The translations under genes were made by a program, and so were the position numbers. A stretch of DNA of 64,000 nucleotides from Candidatus Moraniibacteriota bacterium (GTDB lineage: Bacteria; Patescibacteriota; Minisyncoccia; Moranbacterales; UBA1568). Shown here in pieces: positions 30,238 to 55,818 of the stretch; the first letter of the stretch is position 1, and each line of letters starts with the position of its first letter. The stretch lies in assembly GCA_043743535.1 (NCBI GenBank), contig JAYTWI010000009.1:3407-67406 (forward strand), in the 5' to 3' direction. The notes beneath the pieces were generated by a model. That model saw only the letters and a program-made list of their open reading frames with translations, was not told where the DNA came from and did not search any database.

Positions 30238-30250
30238 CCTTCTTCTCGAG

Positions 30251-30336
30251 AATAACAGGTATCCACCTGATTTTACCAGCACTCGCTCGGAAACAAAAGT
30301 GCACTTTTGTTTCACTCGCTTCGTTTGGTAATAAAA
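30251..30336 (+). repeat. intergenic repeat family copy 1 (~86 bp, contains perfect 24-bp palindrome GAAACAAAAGTGCACTTTTGTTTC)
   Basis: AATAACAGGTATCCACCTGATTTTACCAGCACTCGCTCGGAAACAAAAGTGCACTTTTGTTTCACTCGCTTCGTTTGGTAATAAAA; near-identical to copy at 38251. Confidence 0.9.
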
Positions 30337-30339
30337 AAA

Positions 30340-30366
30340 AGACTCCTTTCCGAGGGGTCTTTTTTT
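30340..30366. terminator. bidirectional rho-independent terminator between convergent rplY and pth
   Basis: AAAAAAAA-AGACUCCU-UUCCG-AGGGGUCU-UUUUUU. Confidence 0.75.
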
Positions 30367-30397
30367 ATACTATGCTGTGCTAGGTTTGCGTGACGTA

Positions 30398-38222: not shown

Positions 38223-38250
38223 GCGATACTGGAAAGGATCAAAAAACCAA

Positions 38251-38339
38251 AATAACAGGTATGCACCTGATTTTACCAGCACTCGCTCGGAAACAGAAAA
38301 TGCACTTTTGTTTCACTCGCTTCGTTTGGTAATAAAAAA
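38251..38339 (+). repeat. intergenic repeat family copy 2
   Basis: AATAACAGGTATGCACCTGATTTTACCAGCACTCGCTCGGAAACAGAAAATGCACTTTTGTTTCACTCGCTTCGTTTGGTAATAAAAAAG. Confidence 0.9.
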
Positions 38340-38519
38340 GCAATTTTAGGGCTCAAAGAGCGAGTTTCCCATTTTTTTGTGTTTCTTGACACGCGATAAT
38401 TTCCTGTGATAGAGTGAATTTTCAAGTGTCGAGCGCGCTTGTACAGGCAGTGGAAAGAGCAGTATACTATCCTCATTGAACAATCGTCTATTTTATTCAT
38501 CAACAGGCAGTAAAGACCT

Positions 38520-40296: not shown

Positions 40297-41772
40297 ATGA
40301 GAAAAGATCAGGTCTTCTTTGGTAGCCTCCTCAGTTTTATCATTGGGGTCGGAGTCGGTTCATTTTTGAATTTTTCTTTTGCTTTCACTTGGTATCTCGG
40401 GACTGCTCTCATTGGAGCGGTTTTCTGTCTCTTCCCGAGAAGGATAATTCTTCTTTCATGGTTGTTTTTCTCTCTGTTTCTTTGGGGCACGTTCATCGCT
40501 TCTCAGGCCGAGCTTAGTTTTGCTCATCTGACATTTCCGACGACCGAGCGTGTGGGTGAAGTGCGTGTGATCAGTAATCCAGAGGAGAAAGGTTTTTTTC
40601 AAAAGGTCATTGTCCGTTTCACGGATTGTGTTGGAGGATGTCCGACGAAAGACATCTTGTGGCAAGCACCAGTGTCAACGATGATTGAAGCCGGTGAGCG
40701 CTTGCAGTTTCGTTGCCATCTAGCACGGCCAGAAAATTTCAGTGCTGATTTCGACTACCGTATGTTTTTGGCCAAAGATGGGATCGGTTTTTTGTGTCAA
40801 CATGCTACGTTAGCCGAAAAATTACCCGGGGATACGCCGGGACGCGTCAGTGCCGCCCTCTATGTGTTGAAGCATGCCTTGGAACGGGCTCTTTCTCAAA
40901 GTATTCCTGAACCGGAAGCGGGGCTGGCTAAGGGACTATTGCTTGGCGGCAGCAGCTATCTCCCTGATGCTTTGCAAAATGCTTTCACCCGAGTGGGGCT
41001 GACCCACATCGTGGCGGTGTCTGGTTACAATATCACTCTCATTGCGGAGGGACTGCTCTTCCTCGGATTATTTTTTGGTCTGTGGCGTAAGCAAGCGTTG
41101 TGGGTAGCATTTTTTGGCATTGTCTTTTTTATCCTGATGATTGGAGCGCCTGCCTCGGCCACGCGGGCCGGCTTTATGGCTGGAGTGGCCTTTGCGGCAC
41201 TTCAGGCTGGGCGTTTGGCGCGACCGCTCAATGCTTTGCTTTTGGCCGCCTCGATTATGCTTCTTTTTAATCCCTTGCTCTTGCGTTATGATGTCGGCTT
41301 TCAACTCTCCTTTTTGGCAACGTTGGGTATTATTTTTGTCTTGCCGTATATTGAGCGGGTGCTGCCCGAAAAGTTGCTTGCCCAAAGCGTGGGTGAGATC
41401 ATTCTTATGACTATGGCAGTGGAACTTTTTGTCTTACCGATTATCCTCTTTTCGTTTCATCGTTTTTCGCCGCTTATCATCGTGGCCAATTTTCTCATCA
41501 TCGTGGTACCTTTCGCTATGGCGGCTTCGTTTGTGGCTGGAGTGTTGTTCTTGCTCTTACCGGGGACACATACTCTTTTTGCCTGGCTTGCCTTTGCTCT
41601 TTTGACGTTCATTACCCGATCAGTCGAATGGTTGGGGGCTATCTCTTCAGCCAGTGTAACGATCGACGGTTTTGGAGTGAAGAGTCTGTTACTGTGGTAC
41701 GGAGTACTCTTTTTCCTTGTCAGATGGGGCGAGAAGCACTATGCTCAAAAAAACTATGACTACGAAAAATAA
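40297..41772 (+). CDS. comEC: ComEC/Rec2-family competence membrane channel (DUF4131 + competence domain, no fused MBL domain)
   Basis: ATG overlaps nrdR stop (TAAAATG); GLLLGGSSYLPDALQNAFTRVGLTHIVAVSGYNITLIAE; many TM helices. Confidence 0.8.
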   Translation: MRKDQVFFGSLLSFIIGVGVGSFLNFSFAFTWYLGTALIGAVFCLFPRRIILLSWLFFSLFLWGTFIASQAELSFAHLTFPTTERVGEVRVISNPEEKGFFQKVIVRFTDCVGGCPTKDILWQAPVSTMIEAGERLQFRCHLARPENFSADFDYRMFLAKDGIGFLCQHATLAEKLPGDTPGRVSAALYVLKHALERALSQSIPEPEAGLAKGLLLGGSSYLPDALQNAFTRVGLTHIVAVSGYNITLIAEGLLFLGLFFGLWRKQALWVAFFGIVFFILMIGAPASATRAGFMAGVAFAALQAGRLARPLNALLLAASIMLLFNPLLLRYDVGFQLSFLATLGIIFVLPYIERVLPEKLLAQSVGEIILMTMAVELFVLPIILFSFHRFSPLIIVANFLIIVVPFAMAASFVAGVLFLLLPGTHTLFAWLAFALLTFITRSVEWLGAISSASVTIDGFGVKSLLLWYGVLFFLVRWGEKHYAQKNYDYEK

Positions 41773-41856
41773 CAGGTATTTACCCGATTTTACTGGCACT
41801 CGCTCGGAAACGAAAGTAAACTTCGTTTCGCTTACTTCGTTTGGTAATAAAAAACT
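41769..41856 (+). repeat. intergenic repeat family copy 3 (diverged, with compensatory change in palindrome arms)
   Basis: AATAACAGGTATTTACCCGATTTTACTGGCACTCGCTCGGAAACGAAAGTAAACTTCGTTTCGCTTACTTCGTTTGGTAATAAAAAA; overlaps comEC stop codon. Confidence 0.85.
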
Positions 41857-41860
41857 CAGA

Positions 41861-42691
41861 CTGTTAATTTTTTGTTTGGCGCTCACCGTCTTCTTAGGGA
41901 TCCTTTTTTGCTTTTGGTTTTTCTGGCAGTATCAAAAAACAGAAGTAGTGTTCTTGAATGTGGGTCAGGGCGATGCCATCCTCATCTCGCAAGGGACGAA
42001 TCAAATACTGATCGATGGCGGGCGGAGTAGTAAAGAACTCCTGGCACATTTGGGGCGCCACATGCCATTTTGGGATCGCCGCATCGAAGCGGTTATTGCC
42101 ACCCACCCGGATGCCGACCATATTGGTGGTCTGCCAGCTCTCTTTCGGGCTTATCAGATCGGAGCAGTGTTCTACACGGGGGCGGAAAGTGACACGGAGA
42201 CTGACCGACTCTTTTTAGCGGGAGGAGAGAAGAGTACTGGGCACGCTCTCTACACCATTTTTCACGGTGGCAGTATGGAATTTCCAAAGGGAGGGAAACT
42301 TTCGATTGAATATCCACAGACGGCACTGCCCAAAGAAGCCAAGGACACCAACGAGGGGAGTATCGTGGCTCGGTTCGTGTATGGCGAAACAAGTTTTCTT
42401 TTGACGGGGGACTTGCCGCACGAAGAAACGGTCTTGCTCGATGAGGCACCAGTGACGGTACTCAAGGTAGCGCATCACGGTTCCAAGTATTCATCGAGTG
42501 AAGATTTCCTCAAGATGGTGGAACCGAAAGAAGCCATCATTTCCGTCGGTCAGAATAGTTATGGCCATCCAAATCAGGGCGTGCTAGAACGTTTACAGAA
42601 GATAGGGAGTATCATTCATCGGACAGATCAAGAAGGGGACATTGTTTATACTTGTTTAGCTATGATCAAACAATGCCACTTTGTGAGATGA
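41861..42691 (+). CDS. membrane-anchored MBL-fold metallo-hydrolase (stand-alone ComEC C-terminal beta-lactamase-like domain)
   Basis: VVFLNVGQGDAILIS, ATHPDADHIGG, VAHHGSKYSS; start codon unresolved (ORF-track ATG 41717 lies inside comEC and reads through the repeat; CTG 41861/TTG 41876 possible). Confidence 0.65.
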   Translation: MLIFCLALTVFLGILFCFWFFWQYQKTEVVFLNVGQGDAILISQGTNQILIDGGRSSKELLAHLGRHMPFWDRRIEAVIATHPDADHIGGLPALFRAYQIGAVFYTGAESDTETDRLFLAGGEKSTGHALYTIFHGGSMEFPKGGKLSIEYPQTALPKEAKDTNEGSIVARFVYGETSFLLTGDLPHEETVLLDEAPVTVLKVAHHGSKYSSSEDFLKMVEPKEAIISVGQNSYGHPNQGVLERLQKIGSIIHRTDQEGDIVYTCLAMIKQCHFVR

Positions 42692-44247: not shown

Positions 44248-44321
44248 CGGGCTGTAGTATATCGGCAGTACGCGTGCATGGGGTGCACGTAGGCCGGGTT
44301 CGATTCCCGGCAGCCCGACCA
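44248..44321 (+). tRNA. tRNA-Pro (anticodon GGG)
   Basis: acceptor CGGGCTG/CAGCCCG, D-arm GTAT..GTAC, anticodon stem CGTGC/GCACG with loop ATGGGGT, T-arm CCGGG-TTCGATT-CCCGG, discriminator A, encoded CCA. Confidence 0.85.
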
Positions 44322-44331
44322 TAAAGAAAAA
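44285..44331 (+). repeat. 47-bp direct repeat copy 1 (tRNA-Pro 3' half from anticodon-stem 3' strand through CCA plus TAAAGAAAAA)
   Basis: GCACGTAGGCCGGGTTCGATTCCCGGCAGCCCGACCATAAAGAAAAA identical at 44646-44692. Confidence 0.9.
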
Positions 44332-44457
44332 TAAGGCTGGGGGGCGTAAAGCAAACTGCTTTGCTTTACGCGGGTATTTCCGTAAGTCGTCTCTGGCTTA
44401 CGGATAAAAAACACCCCGGAACTTGTAGTAGCAGTTCGATTCTGCTTACCCCGACAT

Positions 44458-44547
44458 TTTTGGTTTATTACCAAACGAAGCGAGTGAAACGAAAGTGTAC
44501 TTTTGTTTCCGAGCGAGTGCTGGTAAAATCGGGTGAATACTCGTTAT
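44458..44547 (-). repeat. intergenic repeat family copy 4 (reverse orientation), inside the tRNA-flanked insert
   Basis: plus strand TTTATTACCAAACGAAGCGAGTGAAACGAAAGTGTACTTTTGTTTCCGAGCGAGTGCTGGTAAAATCGGGTGAATACTCGTTATT. Confidence 0.85.
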
Positions 44548-44645
44548 TCTTCATGTACGCGGCATGGGGGTAAAAAGTGAACTGCTTCACTTTTTACGGT
44601 TTTCTTCGAAAAGCGTCTCTGTTTTTCGGGAAAAGAAAACCCGGA

Positions 44646-44692
44646 GCACGTAGGCCGGGTTCGATTCCCGGCAGCCCGACCATAAAGAAAAA
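44646..44692 (+). repeat. 47-bp direct repeat copy 2 (partial tRNA-Pro 3' half; att-like)
   Basis: perfect match to 44285-44331; no 5' tRNA half upstream. Confidence 0.9.
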
Positions 44693-44693
44693 A

Positions 44694-44719
44694 CCTCCCC
44701 CAAATGGGGGAGGTTTTTG
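44694..44719 (+). terminator. rho-independent terminator
   Basis: CCTCCCCC-AAAT-GGGGGAGG + TTTTT. Confidence 0.8.
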
Positions 44720-44794
44720 ATATTAAAAAAAGACTATTATAAGGCATTATTTTGCGATTCTTTCTGTTCTTTGGTCTACGGATAGCAGTTGCTA

Positions 44795-44823
44795 TTGACA
44801 ATAAATCATTTTTGGTGTATAAT
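44795..44823 (+). promoter_or_regulatory. perfect-consensus sigma70 promoter TTGACA-17-TATAAT
   Basis: TTGACA 44795-44800, TATAAT 44818-44823. Confidence 0.7.
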
Positions 44824-44909
44824 AAAATGTTTAGTAATTTAATAAAAAAATAACTGGACGGCTCCCGTGGGGCACCCCCTCATTTCGCATCCCCTTACCC
44901 GGGGAAGGC

Positions 44910-45419
44910 ATGCGGCTCATTCTGGAGCTTTCCATGAACTACCTGCCTGCTGCCGCAACATTTGAGGAATTTCCTGTTCAGAGCCTTTGGGCTAAGCCGG
45001 AATTCAAGAAGAACAAGGTGTCACAGAAGACCCGATTTCTTCCCAAGACCGAAAGGCTTCTGGCATTGAACCGAGCGGATGAGGTCTCTGCGTATGACTT
45101 CCAGCCGCTACAGCACCATCAGCCATTAGCAAAGATGCGCATTCAGTTGGGTGACCAAGTGGTCTTCTCGGCCGCTATTCCTCTGACTCTGCAGGAAGAG
45201 ATGTGCGGAGGAGAGCCGATGCAGGTGCTCGGAGTGGAAGATTCCAATGTCGACACCATAATCGAGGTGCCTTTCGAATTCGGTACTGGCGAGGTGGTTT
45301 TTCCAGAACCCCTCGCGAGCGAAGACTTCATCGAAGTCACGGTTAAAACGACACTCGGATACCTCATGGTGGCTAATGCGAAATACTTCCGGCGTGTAGA
45401 GGAAGAAACCCTCGCATAG
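44910..45419 (+). CDS. hypothetical protein (orphan)
   Basis: 169-aa ORF downstream of consensus promoter; terminator hairpin GCCCGTATG...CATACGGGC at 45460-45490. Confidence 0.5.
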   Translation: MRLILELSMNYLPAAATFEEFPVQSLWAKPEFKKNKVSQKTRFLPKTERLLALNRADEVSAYDFQPLQHHQPLAKMRIQLGDQVVFSAAIPLTLQEEMCGGEPMQVLGVEDSNVDTIIEVPFEFGTGEVVFPEPLASEDFIEVTVKTTLGYLMVANAKYFRRVEEETLA

Positions 45420-45491
45420 CTCACAGTCCTACTGGTCTCCTCCAGTAGCCATATATCAAGCCCGTATGACATTATTCATACGGGCTTCTTC

Positions 45492-45531
45492 ATTACCAAA
45501 CGAGTGCAAAATCAGGTCAATAACTGTTATT
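45492..45531 (-). repeat. intergenic repeat family copy 7 (internal-deletion derivative lacking the palindrome)
   Basis: ATTACCAAACGAGTGCAAAATCAGGTCAATAACTGTTATT aligns to both ends of the family consensus in reverse orientation. Confidence 0.6.
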
Positions 45532-45540
45532 TTTAAATAT

Positions 45541-49888: not shown

Positions 49889-49929
49889 AATCGTTGAGAG
49901 GCGAAGAGTCATGAGTTACGTACGAAGTA

Positions 49930-49958
49930 GAAAACCAGCCACTCGGGCTGGTTTTTTT
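49930..49958 (+). terminator. rho-independent terminator after fusA
   Basis: AAAA-CCAGCC-ACTCG-GGCTGG-TTTTTTT. Confidence 0.8.
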
Positions 49959-49959
49959 G

Positions 49960-49988
49960 TTGACAGATTTTGAGAAAAGACTTATCAT
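49960..49988 (+). promoter_or_regulatory. sigma70 promoter TTGACA-17-TATCAT for inserted orphan gene
   Basis: TTGACA 49960-49965, TATCAT 49983-49988; AGGAGG RBS before ATG 50075. Confidence 0.6.
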
Positions 49989-50074
49989 AGCCAGTTATTT
50001 AAAAAACGGGATTAGCGACTATAATAGTTCCATTTTGTCCGTACACAATAGTGTAACCATTACAGGAGGTTGTC

Positions 50075-50614
50075 ATGAATCGCATTAGCACTCTGACCAT
50101 CAGTGAGAGAGTTTTTTCGTTTGACCTAGCTCAGGAATTTCAGAATCAATCTGGGCTGGTTGTACACGAGACCTTTTCTCAGCGGATTCTTTCGTCTCTT
50201 CAACCCGTTGAATTGACGGTGCAATGTCGGTATGAGGCCTTGCCATTGCGAAGCTGGCTTGGAAATCCGAGGTCATACCCAAGATCTCCCAAAAACCCCT
50301 TACCTAGATACGAACCGACCAGTGCTGAGATTTTCACTGATCTGTCGCCGAGAGATCAAGGAATGCTCGTGAAGGCAGAACACCTTGCGATACTCCTGTC
50401 GTTTCAGTTGAATGGACAAAGTGGAATATTGGCCACGACAGACAACCTCGCCACGCTCTGCTTTATGAGGGGGACGAACAATCAGGTTTTTCTGATCCGT
50501 GTTTTCTGGAACCAAGGGATGAAAAAGTGGTTCATACGGGCTTGGAGTTTCAAAGAGCGCATTGACCGTGGGTGGTCGAAAGCTAATCTGCTTCTCCTGC
50601 CGTTCAACTTCTAG
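50075..50614 (+). CDS. hypothetical protein inserted between fusA and tuf
   Basis: 179-aa ORF with own promoter, strong RBS (CAGGAGGTTGTCATG) and downstream terminator. Confidence 0.55.
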   Translation: MNRISTLTISERVFSFDLAQEFQNQSGLVVHETFSQRILSSLQPVELTVQCRYEALPLRSWLGNPRSYPRSPKNPLPRYEPTSAEIFTDLSPRDQGMLVKAEHLAILLSFQLNGQSGILATTDNLATLCFMRGTNNQVFLIRVFWNQGMKKWFIRAWSFKERIDRGWSKANLLLLPFNF

Positions 50615-50655
50615 ACCCACATCAGCTCTTGGTACTGTTCTCTGAAGTACACCCT

Positions 50656-50689
50656 CCCGCGTAGGTCATTGACCAATGCGGGTTTTTTT
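50656..50689 (+). terminator. rho-independent terminator (compound hairpin)
   Basis: CCCGC-gtaGGTCAtTGACCaat-GCGGG + TTTTTTT. Confidence 0.65.
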
Positions 50690-50768
50690 ATTACCAAACG
50701 AAGCAGCTGAAACAAAAGTGTACTTTTGTTTCAGAACGAGTACCAATAAAATCAGGTGAATACCCTCC
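50684..50768 (-). repeat. intergenic repeat family copy 5 (reverse orientation)
   Basis: plus strand TTTTTATTACCAAACGAAGCAGCTGAAACAAAAGTGTACTTTTGTTTCAGAACGAGTACCAATAAAATCAGGTGAATACCCTCC. Confidence 0.85.
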
Positions 50769-50949
50769 CACGGCTTGCTAAGGAAAGAGGCGAACACTAG
50801 CTTGCTTTGAGTCCAGAGTTTATCCTGGGGTGAGTACCTGTTACTTCTGAAAATAGTTGAAATAAGGGAAAATGATGGCTTAACCCAGTTAGAGGAAAGT
50901 CACTGCTAGTGACCGAAGTCGCGCCAAAGGCGCAGCGTTCTCTCACGGG

Positions 50950-50978
50950 GTTGACAGAAATTGAGTGAGTTGATATCA
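50950..50978 (+). promoter_or_regulatory. sigma70 promoter TTGACA-17-TATCAT upstream of tuf (~100-nt leader)
   Basis: TTGACA 50950-50955, TATCAT 50973-50978. Confidence 0.6.
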
Positions 50979-55376: not shown

Positions 55377-55730
55377 ATGTCACGAAGTCTCAAAAAAGGT
55401 CCATACGTCGATCCCCGAGTTTTGAAAAAGATCGAGGGAAAGAAATTGGGTGATCGCGAAGTCATTAAGACATGGTCGCGCGCTTGTGTCATCTCGCCTG
55501 AGATGGTAGGGTTCACTTTCGGCGTACATAATGGCAAAATTTTCATTCCTGTTTTTGCGACCGAAGAAATGGTGGGTCATCGTCTGGGAGAGTTCTCCCC
55601 GACTCGTACCTTTCGTCGACACGGTGGCAAGATGCAGAAAGAAATTGAAATTGCCTCCAAGCAACGTGACTTGGATGCCGCTAAGGCCGCCAAATCAGCT
55701 ACTGCCGCTCCTACCGCCAAGAAGAAATAA
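55377..55730 (+). CDS. rpsS: 30S ribosomal protein S19 with Ala/Lys-rich C-terminal tail
   Basis: [20 protein letters not shown]...[18 protein letters not shown]. Confidence 0.9.
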
Positions 55731-55743
55731 CCTTTATGAAAAT

Positions 55744-55812
55744 GTTTTTTCCAGCACTCCATTCGGAATCAAAAATAAATTTTCGTTTCGCTCACTCCGT
55801 TTGGAAATAACC
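55744..55812 (+). repeat. intergenic repeat family copy 6 (degenerate) between rpsS and rplV
   Basis: TTTTTTCCAGCACTCCATTCGGAATCAAAAATAAATTTTCGTTTCGCTCACTCCGTTTGGAAATAACC vs consensus GATTTTACCAGCACTCGCTCGGAAAC...GTTTCACTCGCTTCGTTTGGTAATAA. Confidence 0.6.
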
Positions 55813-55818
55813 TGACTT

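Follow-up and report, generated by a model that had tools for sequence, protein, structure and literature searches.

The 64,000-nucleotide stretch analysed here (the window; positions 3,407 to 67,406 of contig JAYTWI010000009.1, assembly GCA_043743535.1, of a Candidatus Moraniibacteriota bacterium) holds, beside genes such as rplY, ftsA, comEC and rpsS, seven copies of a short structured repeat, which is very probably a small mobile DNA element, non-autonomous and belonging to a family found in Candidatus Moranbacteria. The original prediction had listed seven repeats of about 85 bp, and their number and approximate places were borne out by repeat detection, alignment, a family hidden Markov model (HMM) and a covariance model alike. 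The covariance model, built from 37 family members and scored across the entire window with filters off, matched 30249-30340(+), 38249-38341(+), 41766-41856(+), 44459-44550(-), 50682-50773(-), 55724-55816(+) and, weakly (25 bits, E=0.006), 45484-45533(-), with no match at E<0.1 outside a copy. The 24-nt core of the element, with up to three mismatches allowed, has three matches in the window and none in 100 shuffles.

With boundaries set from empty sites in relatives, the copies comprise four full short elements, one long form, one divergent and one internally deleted copy. The first short element (30254-30332, +, 79 nt) begins 16 nt past the rplY stop and abuts an A-run, an intrinsic terminator hairpin and a T-run (30333-30367, +, recognised by folding), which are target context outside the element and occur without it in the relative L061 (L numbers designate the loci and contigs compared). 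The second (38254-38333, +, 80 nt) lies in the ftsA-ftsZ spacer, 31 nt from the ftsA stop, and the third (41771-41848, +, 78 nt) inside the TAA stop (41770-41772) of the N-terminal open reading frame (ORF) of comEC, overlapping in frame, over 26 codons, a second ORF (41741-42691) with a Lactamase_B domain. The fourth (44467-44545, -, 79 nt) is located in a lineage-specific segment 3' of tRNA-Pro which is absent in L065. The long form (50690-50842, -, 153 nt), previously taken for a repeat of ordinary length, carries three extra hairpins within its 5' hairpin, and its 3' end adjoins the terminator T-run of ORF 50075-50614. The divergent copy (55729-55808, +, 80 nt, 78 bits) fills the spacer between rpsS and rplV, genes first given as rplL and rpoB, from inside the rpsS TAA stop (55728-55730) to 10 nt ahead of the rplV start, and the deleted copy (45492-45528, -) spans 37 nt. 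Most copies are indeed intergenic, except for the one in the overlap of the two comEC ORFs and the two that begin inside stop codons; a start at or near the upstream stop translates into 0 nt for the comEC N-terminal ORF and rpsS and into the larger distances given above for rplY and ftsA. As had been noticed, copies abut terminators, in the window those at 30254, 50690 and 45492 and in other genomes many more.

Structure of the repeat

Read on the strand of the original prediction, the short form consists of AA, the hairpin P1 (C(A/G)GGT-ATTC-ACC(T/C)G), ATTT, the 5' arm of helix P2 (TTACC(A/G)G), a 5' loop strand (CACTCGCTCG), the hairpin P3 (GAAACGAAAG-TAAA-CTTTCGTTTC, with a 10-bp stem and a 4-nt loop), a 3' loop strand (ACTC(A/G)CTTCGT), the 3' arm of P2 (TTGGTAA) and a final T. 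At 30254, these parts correspond to 30256-30269 for P1, 30273-30279 and 30325-30331 for the arms of P2, 30280-30289 and 30314-30324 for the 5' and 3' loop strands and 30290-30313 for P3. The perfect 24-bp palindrome centred on GTGCAC, attributed to the whole family before, is a property of P3 in this copy only. Being direct repeats of CACTCGCT, the two loop strands are unable to pair with each other and form a symmetric, nearly invariant 11x11 internal loop; in the window, CACTCGCT has no further sites outside the copies.

The long form (148-153 nt) has about 72 nt set into the P1 loop, flanked by the duplicated 10-nt repeat GGTATTCACC and folding into the hairpins hpA (CCAGGG-CAAG-CCCTGG), hpB (AAACGAAC-TGAT-GTTCGTTT) and hpC (CCGYGG-CAAG-CCRCGG). 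As it is also present in the most divergent subfamily (L045, L057), the long form is probably ancestral, the short form deriving from it by deletion between the two GGTATTCACC repeats. L039 and L049 have further optional hairpins in the P3 loop, L004 and L027 in the 3' loop strand and L059 past the P2 arm. The divergent window copy has lost P1 and retained P2 through a double change (TTTCC/GGAAA), and the deleted copy keeps P1 and both ends while most of P2, the loops and P3 are gone.

Across 37 distinct short copies, 93.5% of the cells are standard pairs and 13 of the 22 pairs are changed on both sides; not one of 500 shuffles reaches any of the five measures used, and pairing falls to 34-52% when partners are slid by 1-3 columns. 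For ten long copies, the fold of 43 pairs is 93.2% paired, with both-side changes in 10 pairs, among them pairs in hpA (G-C to A-U), hpB and hpC (U-A to C-G). Entire helices have been exchanged, P2 from TTACC/GGTAA to TTGTC/GACAA to TAGCC/GGCTA, and P3 in L007 for GTCCCGCC/GGCGGGAC. The pairing statistics together with these whole-helix swaps argue that the fold is maintained, and the covariation which the original prediction had proposed to look for is present as compensatory changes in six helices around the internal loop. Template switching in the course of replication is able to 'correct' quasi-palindromes, so that selection need not account for every both-side change.

Insertion polymorphism among relatives

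Relatives were graded by an FtsZ search and their contigs compared, with an L22 search adding the rpsS-rplV site. Besides L060, an independent assembly 100% identical to the window sequence, L061 and L062 are the closest relatives (FtsZ 97% identical in amino acids, about 86% nucleotide identity), followed by L063 (FtsZ 93%) and by L065 and L066 (91%). The relatives' contigs are fully syntenic with the window at 28-52 kb and contain no copy that the family HMM finds, and the alignment of the window with L061 breaks exactly at three copies, those of rplY, ftsA-ftsZ and comEC, all three of them missing from L062 too. At rplY, the empty junction AGAAT^GAAAAAAG of L061 stands against the filled AGAAT[AACAGG...TTTGGTAAT]AAAAAAAAG, with the element in brackets; at ftsA-ftsZ, AAAAT^CAAAAAG (L061, L062) against AAAAT[AAC...GGTAAT]AAAAAAG; at comEC, GAAGAAT^AAAAAACTG (L061) against AAAAAT[AAC...GGTAAT]AAAAAACTC; and at rpsS-rplV, AAGAAAT^AATCTGA (L067) against AAGAAAT[AACC...GGAAAT]AACCTGA. 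The outgroups L063, L065, L069 and L070 are empty as well at ftsA-ftsZ (L063, L065), comEC and rpsS-rplV (L069, L070), while at rplY the outgroup sequence is too diverged for alignment. With outgroups empty at three of the four sites, the polarity is that of insertion in the lineage of the window, where at least four insertions have taken place since the split from a relative of about 86% identity. Even the most divergent window copy (55729-55808) is not old, since the closest relative there (L067) is without it.

The spacer equivalent to that of the long form contains no copy in L067, L065 or L070, and a fifth, more diverged empty site (L013 versus L004) fits the same picture. L063 itself belongs to a genome (JBBQYU01) with the element elsewhere, at locus L031. 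Strict-pattern matches number five in 26 kb of the window, as opposed to a few per Mb elsewhere (two in two contigs of about 1.15 Mb in total, three in one contig of 485 kb), a difference which points to a burst in the lineage of the window. Copies also decay and are deleted, as at 45492-45528 of the window, around 7068 of L009 and around 194-257 of L017.

Termini and insertion target

The inserted block measures 78-80 nt (consensus 79), runs from AAC to GGTAAT and enters AAT^A(A) between the T and the A after it, as a rule ahead of an A-run, with AAT present at four of four empty sites; by this target choice it comes to lie beside terminators, at gene ends and within TAA stops. Among 51 copies, the left flank reads A (42), A (46) and T (46), and the right flank A (49) and A (43) or G (8), followed by a decaying A-run. 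Empty sites have one A-tail and one left AAT, so that both belong to the target, and the 3' AAAAAA that had been counted as part of the element is pre-existing target sequence; poly(A)-tailed retroposition is rejected for the same reason. AATAA can be read at both junctions. The right AAT is invariant and borne by the P2 helix, and the left AAT varies (TAT seven times, plus TGT, AGT and AAC) without a matching change on the right, so that a real duplication would comprise at most 2 nt (T^A) or none. The left end of the element is AACRGGTATTYACC and its right end ...CGTTTGGTAAT, and comparison of the ends 5'-AACAGGTATTC and GTTTGGTAAT-3' discloses terminal inverted repeats in no register. The sole inverted pair, TTACC/GGTAA, is terminal on the right and 17-20 nt internal on the left.

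TAA being part of the target, copies lie inside stop codons: in 11 of 53 unique copies, an upstream open frame of 90 codons or more is closed by the TAA of the junction, the window cases being comEC-N and rpsS, and the split TAA is rebuilt by the leading AA of the element itself. The copy in comEC is one base under the consensus, which gives 26 codons and takes the terminal TAA of the element out of the Lactamase_B frame; its length of 78 nt suggests selection to keep this ORF. The division of comEC into two overlapping ORFs (DUF4131 plus Competence, and Lactamase_B) is found throughout the clade (window 40297-42691, L061 10634-12950, L063 11803-14116). With the divergent copy fitting the rpsS-rplV spacer exactly, one may ask whether translation through the S10 operon has been selected for.

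Genomic context of the copies

The element has no coding capacity, and no autonomous gene-carrying version was found, every match to the left part of the long form being contiguous with the right part. In agreement with the original prediction, no transposase or recombinase domain is recognised in the window at Pfam level (by direct scans for 1-28 kb and largely by synteny with Pfam-annotated relatives for 28-64 kb), and eight orphan ORFs are without a family. All-against-all clustering of 532 ORFs from all loci revealed no family that recurs beside copies, the one apparent neighbour cluster being NUDIX genes whose called starts run into the element. The orphan ORFs 50075-50614 and 44910-45419 were rejected as mobilisers, having neither a Pfam family nor a homolog near other copies. 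An insertion sequence (IS) with the same ends is lacking in the window and in about 0.6 Mb of loci.

The tRNA-Pro(GGG) gene (44248-44321) is directly followed by the lineage-specific segment of about 1.2 kb (44322-45540) that L065 lacks. It holds a 98% copy of the last 50 nt of the tRNA (44643-44692), a second fragment resembling the T-arm and acceptor (about 44427-44457), two similar hairpin pairs, two copies of the element and the orphan ORF 44910-45419, preceded by a perfect TTGACA-17-TATAAT promoter (44795-44823). The segment resembles what repeated integration at the tRNA would leave behind; an integrase was not found in it. Two more copies adjoin tRNA genes, in L012 (about 1150-1230) and L017 (about 260-320), which, with the copy at 44467-44545, hints at A/T-rich sequence flanking tRNA genes as a frequent landing site.

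The fusA-tuf spacer (49889-50950) is a variable slot, occupied in the window by ORF 50075-50614, with its own promoter and terminator, and by the long-form copy, in the closest relative L067 by an unrelated orphan ORF (4133-4780) and in L065 and L070 by a spacer of 157 nt without ORF. An ORF-plus-element cassette is rejected, as the element does not lie at the boundary of this insert. At one end of the window (1-4000), where G+C is 0.40 versus about 0.48, orphan ORFs and a protein with Lamin-tail and PKD domains are encoded on the minus strand.

Occurrence in other genomes

A degenerate 24-nt pattern searched in one genome per species gave 32 loci, of which L006 (Cohaesibacteraceae) is a chance match, while the others represent about 17 species-level metagenome-assembled genomes. 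Their titles read Candidatus Moranbacteria, Moraniibacteriota, Patescibacteria, Minisyncoccota or, for TPA (third party annotation) assemblies such as L005, L016, L022, L001, L011, L013, L017 and L025, 'uncultured Bdellovibrionales', a label that may be wrong, given that the element is otherwise limited to Moranbacteria-type genomes of the Candidate Phyla Radiation (CPR). A gapped pattern run over metagenome contigs added 27 loci, and the family HMM counted 69 copies over the loci, 57-58 of them unique. The proposed lineage specificity consequently applies at the level of Moranbacteria and not to this genome alone. Searches of viral contigs, plasmids and phages did not find the element, and the literature on repeats or MITEs (miniature inverted-repeat transposable elements) of Moranbacteria, CPR and Patescibacteria yielded nothing relevant to it. 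The Rfam search suggested by the original prediction gave no match at gathering score and, at E<=10, only sub-threshold hairpin and terminator noise (in the window scan also tRNA-Pro).

Discussion

The repeat is mobile, inserts at a defined target, lacks terminal inverted repeats and maintains a fold, which places it as a new family of structured mobile repeats, nearest in style to bcr1 of Bacillus and absent from Rfam and the searchable literature. The notion of a MITE-like element is upheld as far as mobility is concerned, by four exact empty sites, but not in the classical sense, which would require terminal inverted repeats and a demonstrable target-site duplication. We infer that the element would be moved in trans by an enzyme encoded elsewhere, for which conserved motifs and a folded or repeated architecture, not inverted termini, may be the recognition signal. 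Integration could take place 3' of a short target matching the element's own 3' end, or by recombination across an AT-rich core of 2-5 nt; it would be unlike DDE cut-and-paste with a duplicated target, because P2 includes the invariant right-end AAT and the left AAT belongs to the flanking target. Copies would afterwards decay by point changes and internal deletions. They may be tolerated because sites lie at gene ends or beside terminators and split stops are restored, and effects on neighbouring transcripts, such as added hairpins in 3' untranslated regions (UTRs) and operon spacers, would be a by-product, although transcribed copies will certainly fold.

Several observations weigh against such a mobile DNA element. 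No transposase was recognised in the window and no autonomous partner there or in about 0.6 Mb of loci, and the exact cut positions are ambiguous inside the shared AATAA. Compensatory changes in six helices combined with optional loop hairpins suit a functional folded nucleic acid better than an ordinary MITE. Between co-directional ORFs, 22 copies are sense and nine antisense (p=0.03), with six in convergent and seven in divergent contexts. Orthologous copies of strain pairs differ by 1.6% as compared with 2.0% in 600 nt of flanks, a small sample that gives no sign of special constraint or hypermutation.

A specific version of the mobile-element interpretation, unlikely as it stands, is a derivative of IS200/IS605-type elements (HUH, Y1) or a REP- or REPIN-like repeat (REP, repetitive extragenic palindrome) moved by a REP-associated tyrosine transposase (RAYT), with hairpins as signals in single-stranded DNA, insertion 3' of AAT without duplication and a 3' end of the element that would mimic this target. 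The absence of terminal inverted repeats, the sub-terminal hairpins kept through compensatory changes, a conserved AAT just ahead of the insertion (42-46 of 51 copies) and the invariant right AAT would all fit, as would the L056 contig, on which a divergent head-to-tail tandem pair (2632-2772) shares one boundary motif and an IS200-like Y1 transposase ORF is encoded (1188-1885; 205 aa; PF01797, 35 bits; HUH motif HYH and motif YIHLNP). This ORF is, however, bracketed by direct copies of its own, different palindrome GGACACCGGGTGTCC and is without homologs in the window and at other loci, so that it was rejected as mobiliser and is a lead only. Insertions of IS608 and ISDra2 are strongly strand-biased. 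Relative to local GC skew, a proxy for the replication strand, the element is oriented 25 against 23, which argues against lagging-strand single-strand insertion of the IS608/ISDra2 type as well as against a strictly strand-specific role. Furthermore, the left and right hairpins are unrelated in sequence, in contrast to those at the ends of IS200/IS605 elements, P1 being unlike P2 and P3 and only hpA and hpC of the long form alike. Against the REP-like nature considered in the original prediction stands the absence of a short palindrome tagged with GTAG or CGTC and, at the loci surveyed, of a linked RAYT, the only Y1 ORF seen being that of L056.

A quite improbable proposition is that the family is moved by a mechanism so far undescribed for bacterial mini-elements and exemplifies a structure-guided class of mobile DNA peculiar to CPR bacteria. 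A recombinase or the host machinery would read the covarying helices around the invariant symmetric CACTCGCT/CACTCGCT loop, and integration at T^A of AAT^A would proceed with neither inverted ends nor target duplication; the complete substrate would be the long form, in which two GG-CAAG-CC hairpins match.

That the repeat is primarily a functional structured RNA, either a cis-acting module of 3' UTRs and operon spacers or a family of small RNA genes, whose fold and conserved internal loop would bind a host factor, with mobility secondary, is regarded as very unlikely. Covariation in all helices around the nearly invariant internal loop, the loop-inserted optional hairpins known from many RNA families, the many loci at which the element is placed between stop codon and terminator and the 22:9 sense bias speak for an RNA, as do the sense-strand G.U pairs in P2 and the fold of the 30254 copy, which is far more stable than shuffles (z = -6.0). 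On the other hand, the fold of the antisense strand is almost as stable (z = -5.2), and G.T versus A.C mismatches on the strand shown amount to 72:3 in P2, 7:24 in P3 and 5:8 in P1. The mismatches of P3, mostly A.C, favour the opposite strand, and as the wobble asymmetry contradicts itself between helices, no single folding strand is supported. The sense excess is explained by target polarity, having about the size of the stop-codon class, with AAT^AAAA holding TAA at gene ends. The element is present or absent among near relatives at every testable site, and essential operons work without it; both orientations occur with respect to GC skew, copies decay and delete, and Rfam offers no counterpart. 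Structured RNA as the reason for the existence of the family, another option of the original prediction, is accordingly not upheld. Nor is the element itself an intrinsic terminator, since its sense strand ends in UAAUAAAAA, and the neighbouring terminators are separate and exist without the element in relatives.

Equally improbable is a classical MITE of a DDE transposase, either IS630/mariner-like with duplication of TA or IS5/Harbinger-like with duplication of TAA, whose inverted termini have been overlooked. Although small size, absence of ORFs, insertion polymorphism, an AT-rich, TA-containing target and flanks readable as TA...TA agree with such an origin, no register offers inverted termini, given the internal position of the left TTACC, the TAA-duplication register predicts an insert of 76 nt as opposed to the 78-80 nt measured, and the loci surveyed contain no IS with matching ends. 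An attC site is rejected by the ends (AATAAC/GTTTGGT versus RYYYAAC/GTTRRRY), the dispersal of copies in both orientations among housekeeping genes and the lack of an integrase, and a hammerhead or other small ribozyme, a DNA uptake sequence and a CRISPR repeat were ruled out on reading the sequence.

Relation to known repeats and significance

The family of mobile repeats described here is, in kind, most similar to bcr1 of the Bacillus cereus group, a clade-restricted repeat of about 155 bp whose distribution differs between close strains, which has 5-bp TTTAT repeats at its ends and two stem-loops kept by compensatory changes and whose mobilisation, by an unknown mechanism, is thought to be recombination-like (PMC3184786, PMC6542083). 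Both are small, gene-less and clade-restricted, with AT-rich 5-mer flanks (TTTAT in bcr1, AATAA with the complement TTATT here) and covarying stem-loops, a likeness by description with no known sequence relation. Differences are the Firmicutes host and the length of bcr1 and, in the Moranbacteria element, the conserved 11x11 internal loop, the modular long form and a right-hand motif that is helix-borne and invariant, which makes a true 5-bp duplication doubtful.

Correia/NEMIS, RUP and ERIC elements end in inverted repeats that match a parent IS and have a defined target-site duplication, usually TA, whereas the Moranbacteria element is without such repeats and no parent IS was seen. Shared with these MITEs are the non-autonomous nature, a size below 200 bp, the intergenic location, hairpin-forming transcripts, insertion polymorphism and AT-rich targets (PMC3184786). 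With IS200/IS605-derived palindrome-associated transposable elements (PATEs) and the REP/REPIN-RAYT systems, the element has in common the lack of terminal inverted repeats, a hairpin architecture and insertion beside a short specific sequence without clear duplication, but it shows no replication-strand bias, its end hairpins are unlike each other, and neither a GTAG tag nor a linked Y1 gene was found. REPs are GC-rich palindromes of 20-40 nt with a GTAG or CGTC tag, arranged as inverted doublets, and the single-copy RAYT gene is flanked by repeats; the CACTCGCT motifs of the Moranbacteria element are direct, not inverted. Rickettsia palindromic elements, about 100-150 bp long, are mostly found inside genes. 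These elements (listed in PMC3184786) are likewise small palindromic mobile repeats of a reduced genome which can sit in frame inside coding sequence, as the copy at 41771-41848 does. In contrast to them, the Moranbacteria copies are mostly intergenic, and the single in-frame copy needed a 1-nt deletion.

For the analysis of such genomes, the element is a source of assembly breaks and of annotation errors, for example ORFs extended into it, and at the same time a ready marker of strain-level divergence in Moranbacteria. It also warns that a mobile repeat may pass for an RNA gene on strong covariation alone, and provides a defined substrate for finding an enzyme which moves DNA without inverted repeats. 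Genomes of CPR bacteria or Patescibacteria, about 1 Mb in size, are usually viewed as streamlined and poor in mobile DNA. Here, about 26 kb of core operons (ftsA-ftsZ, comEC, the S10 operon and rplY) have received a selfish element four times or more and none of them has been broken, partly because the target and the first two bases of the element together rebuild TAA stops.

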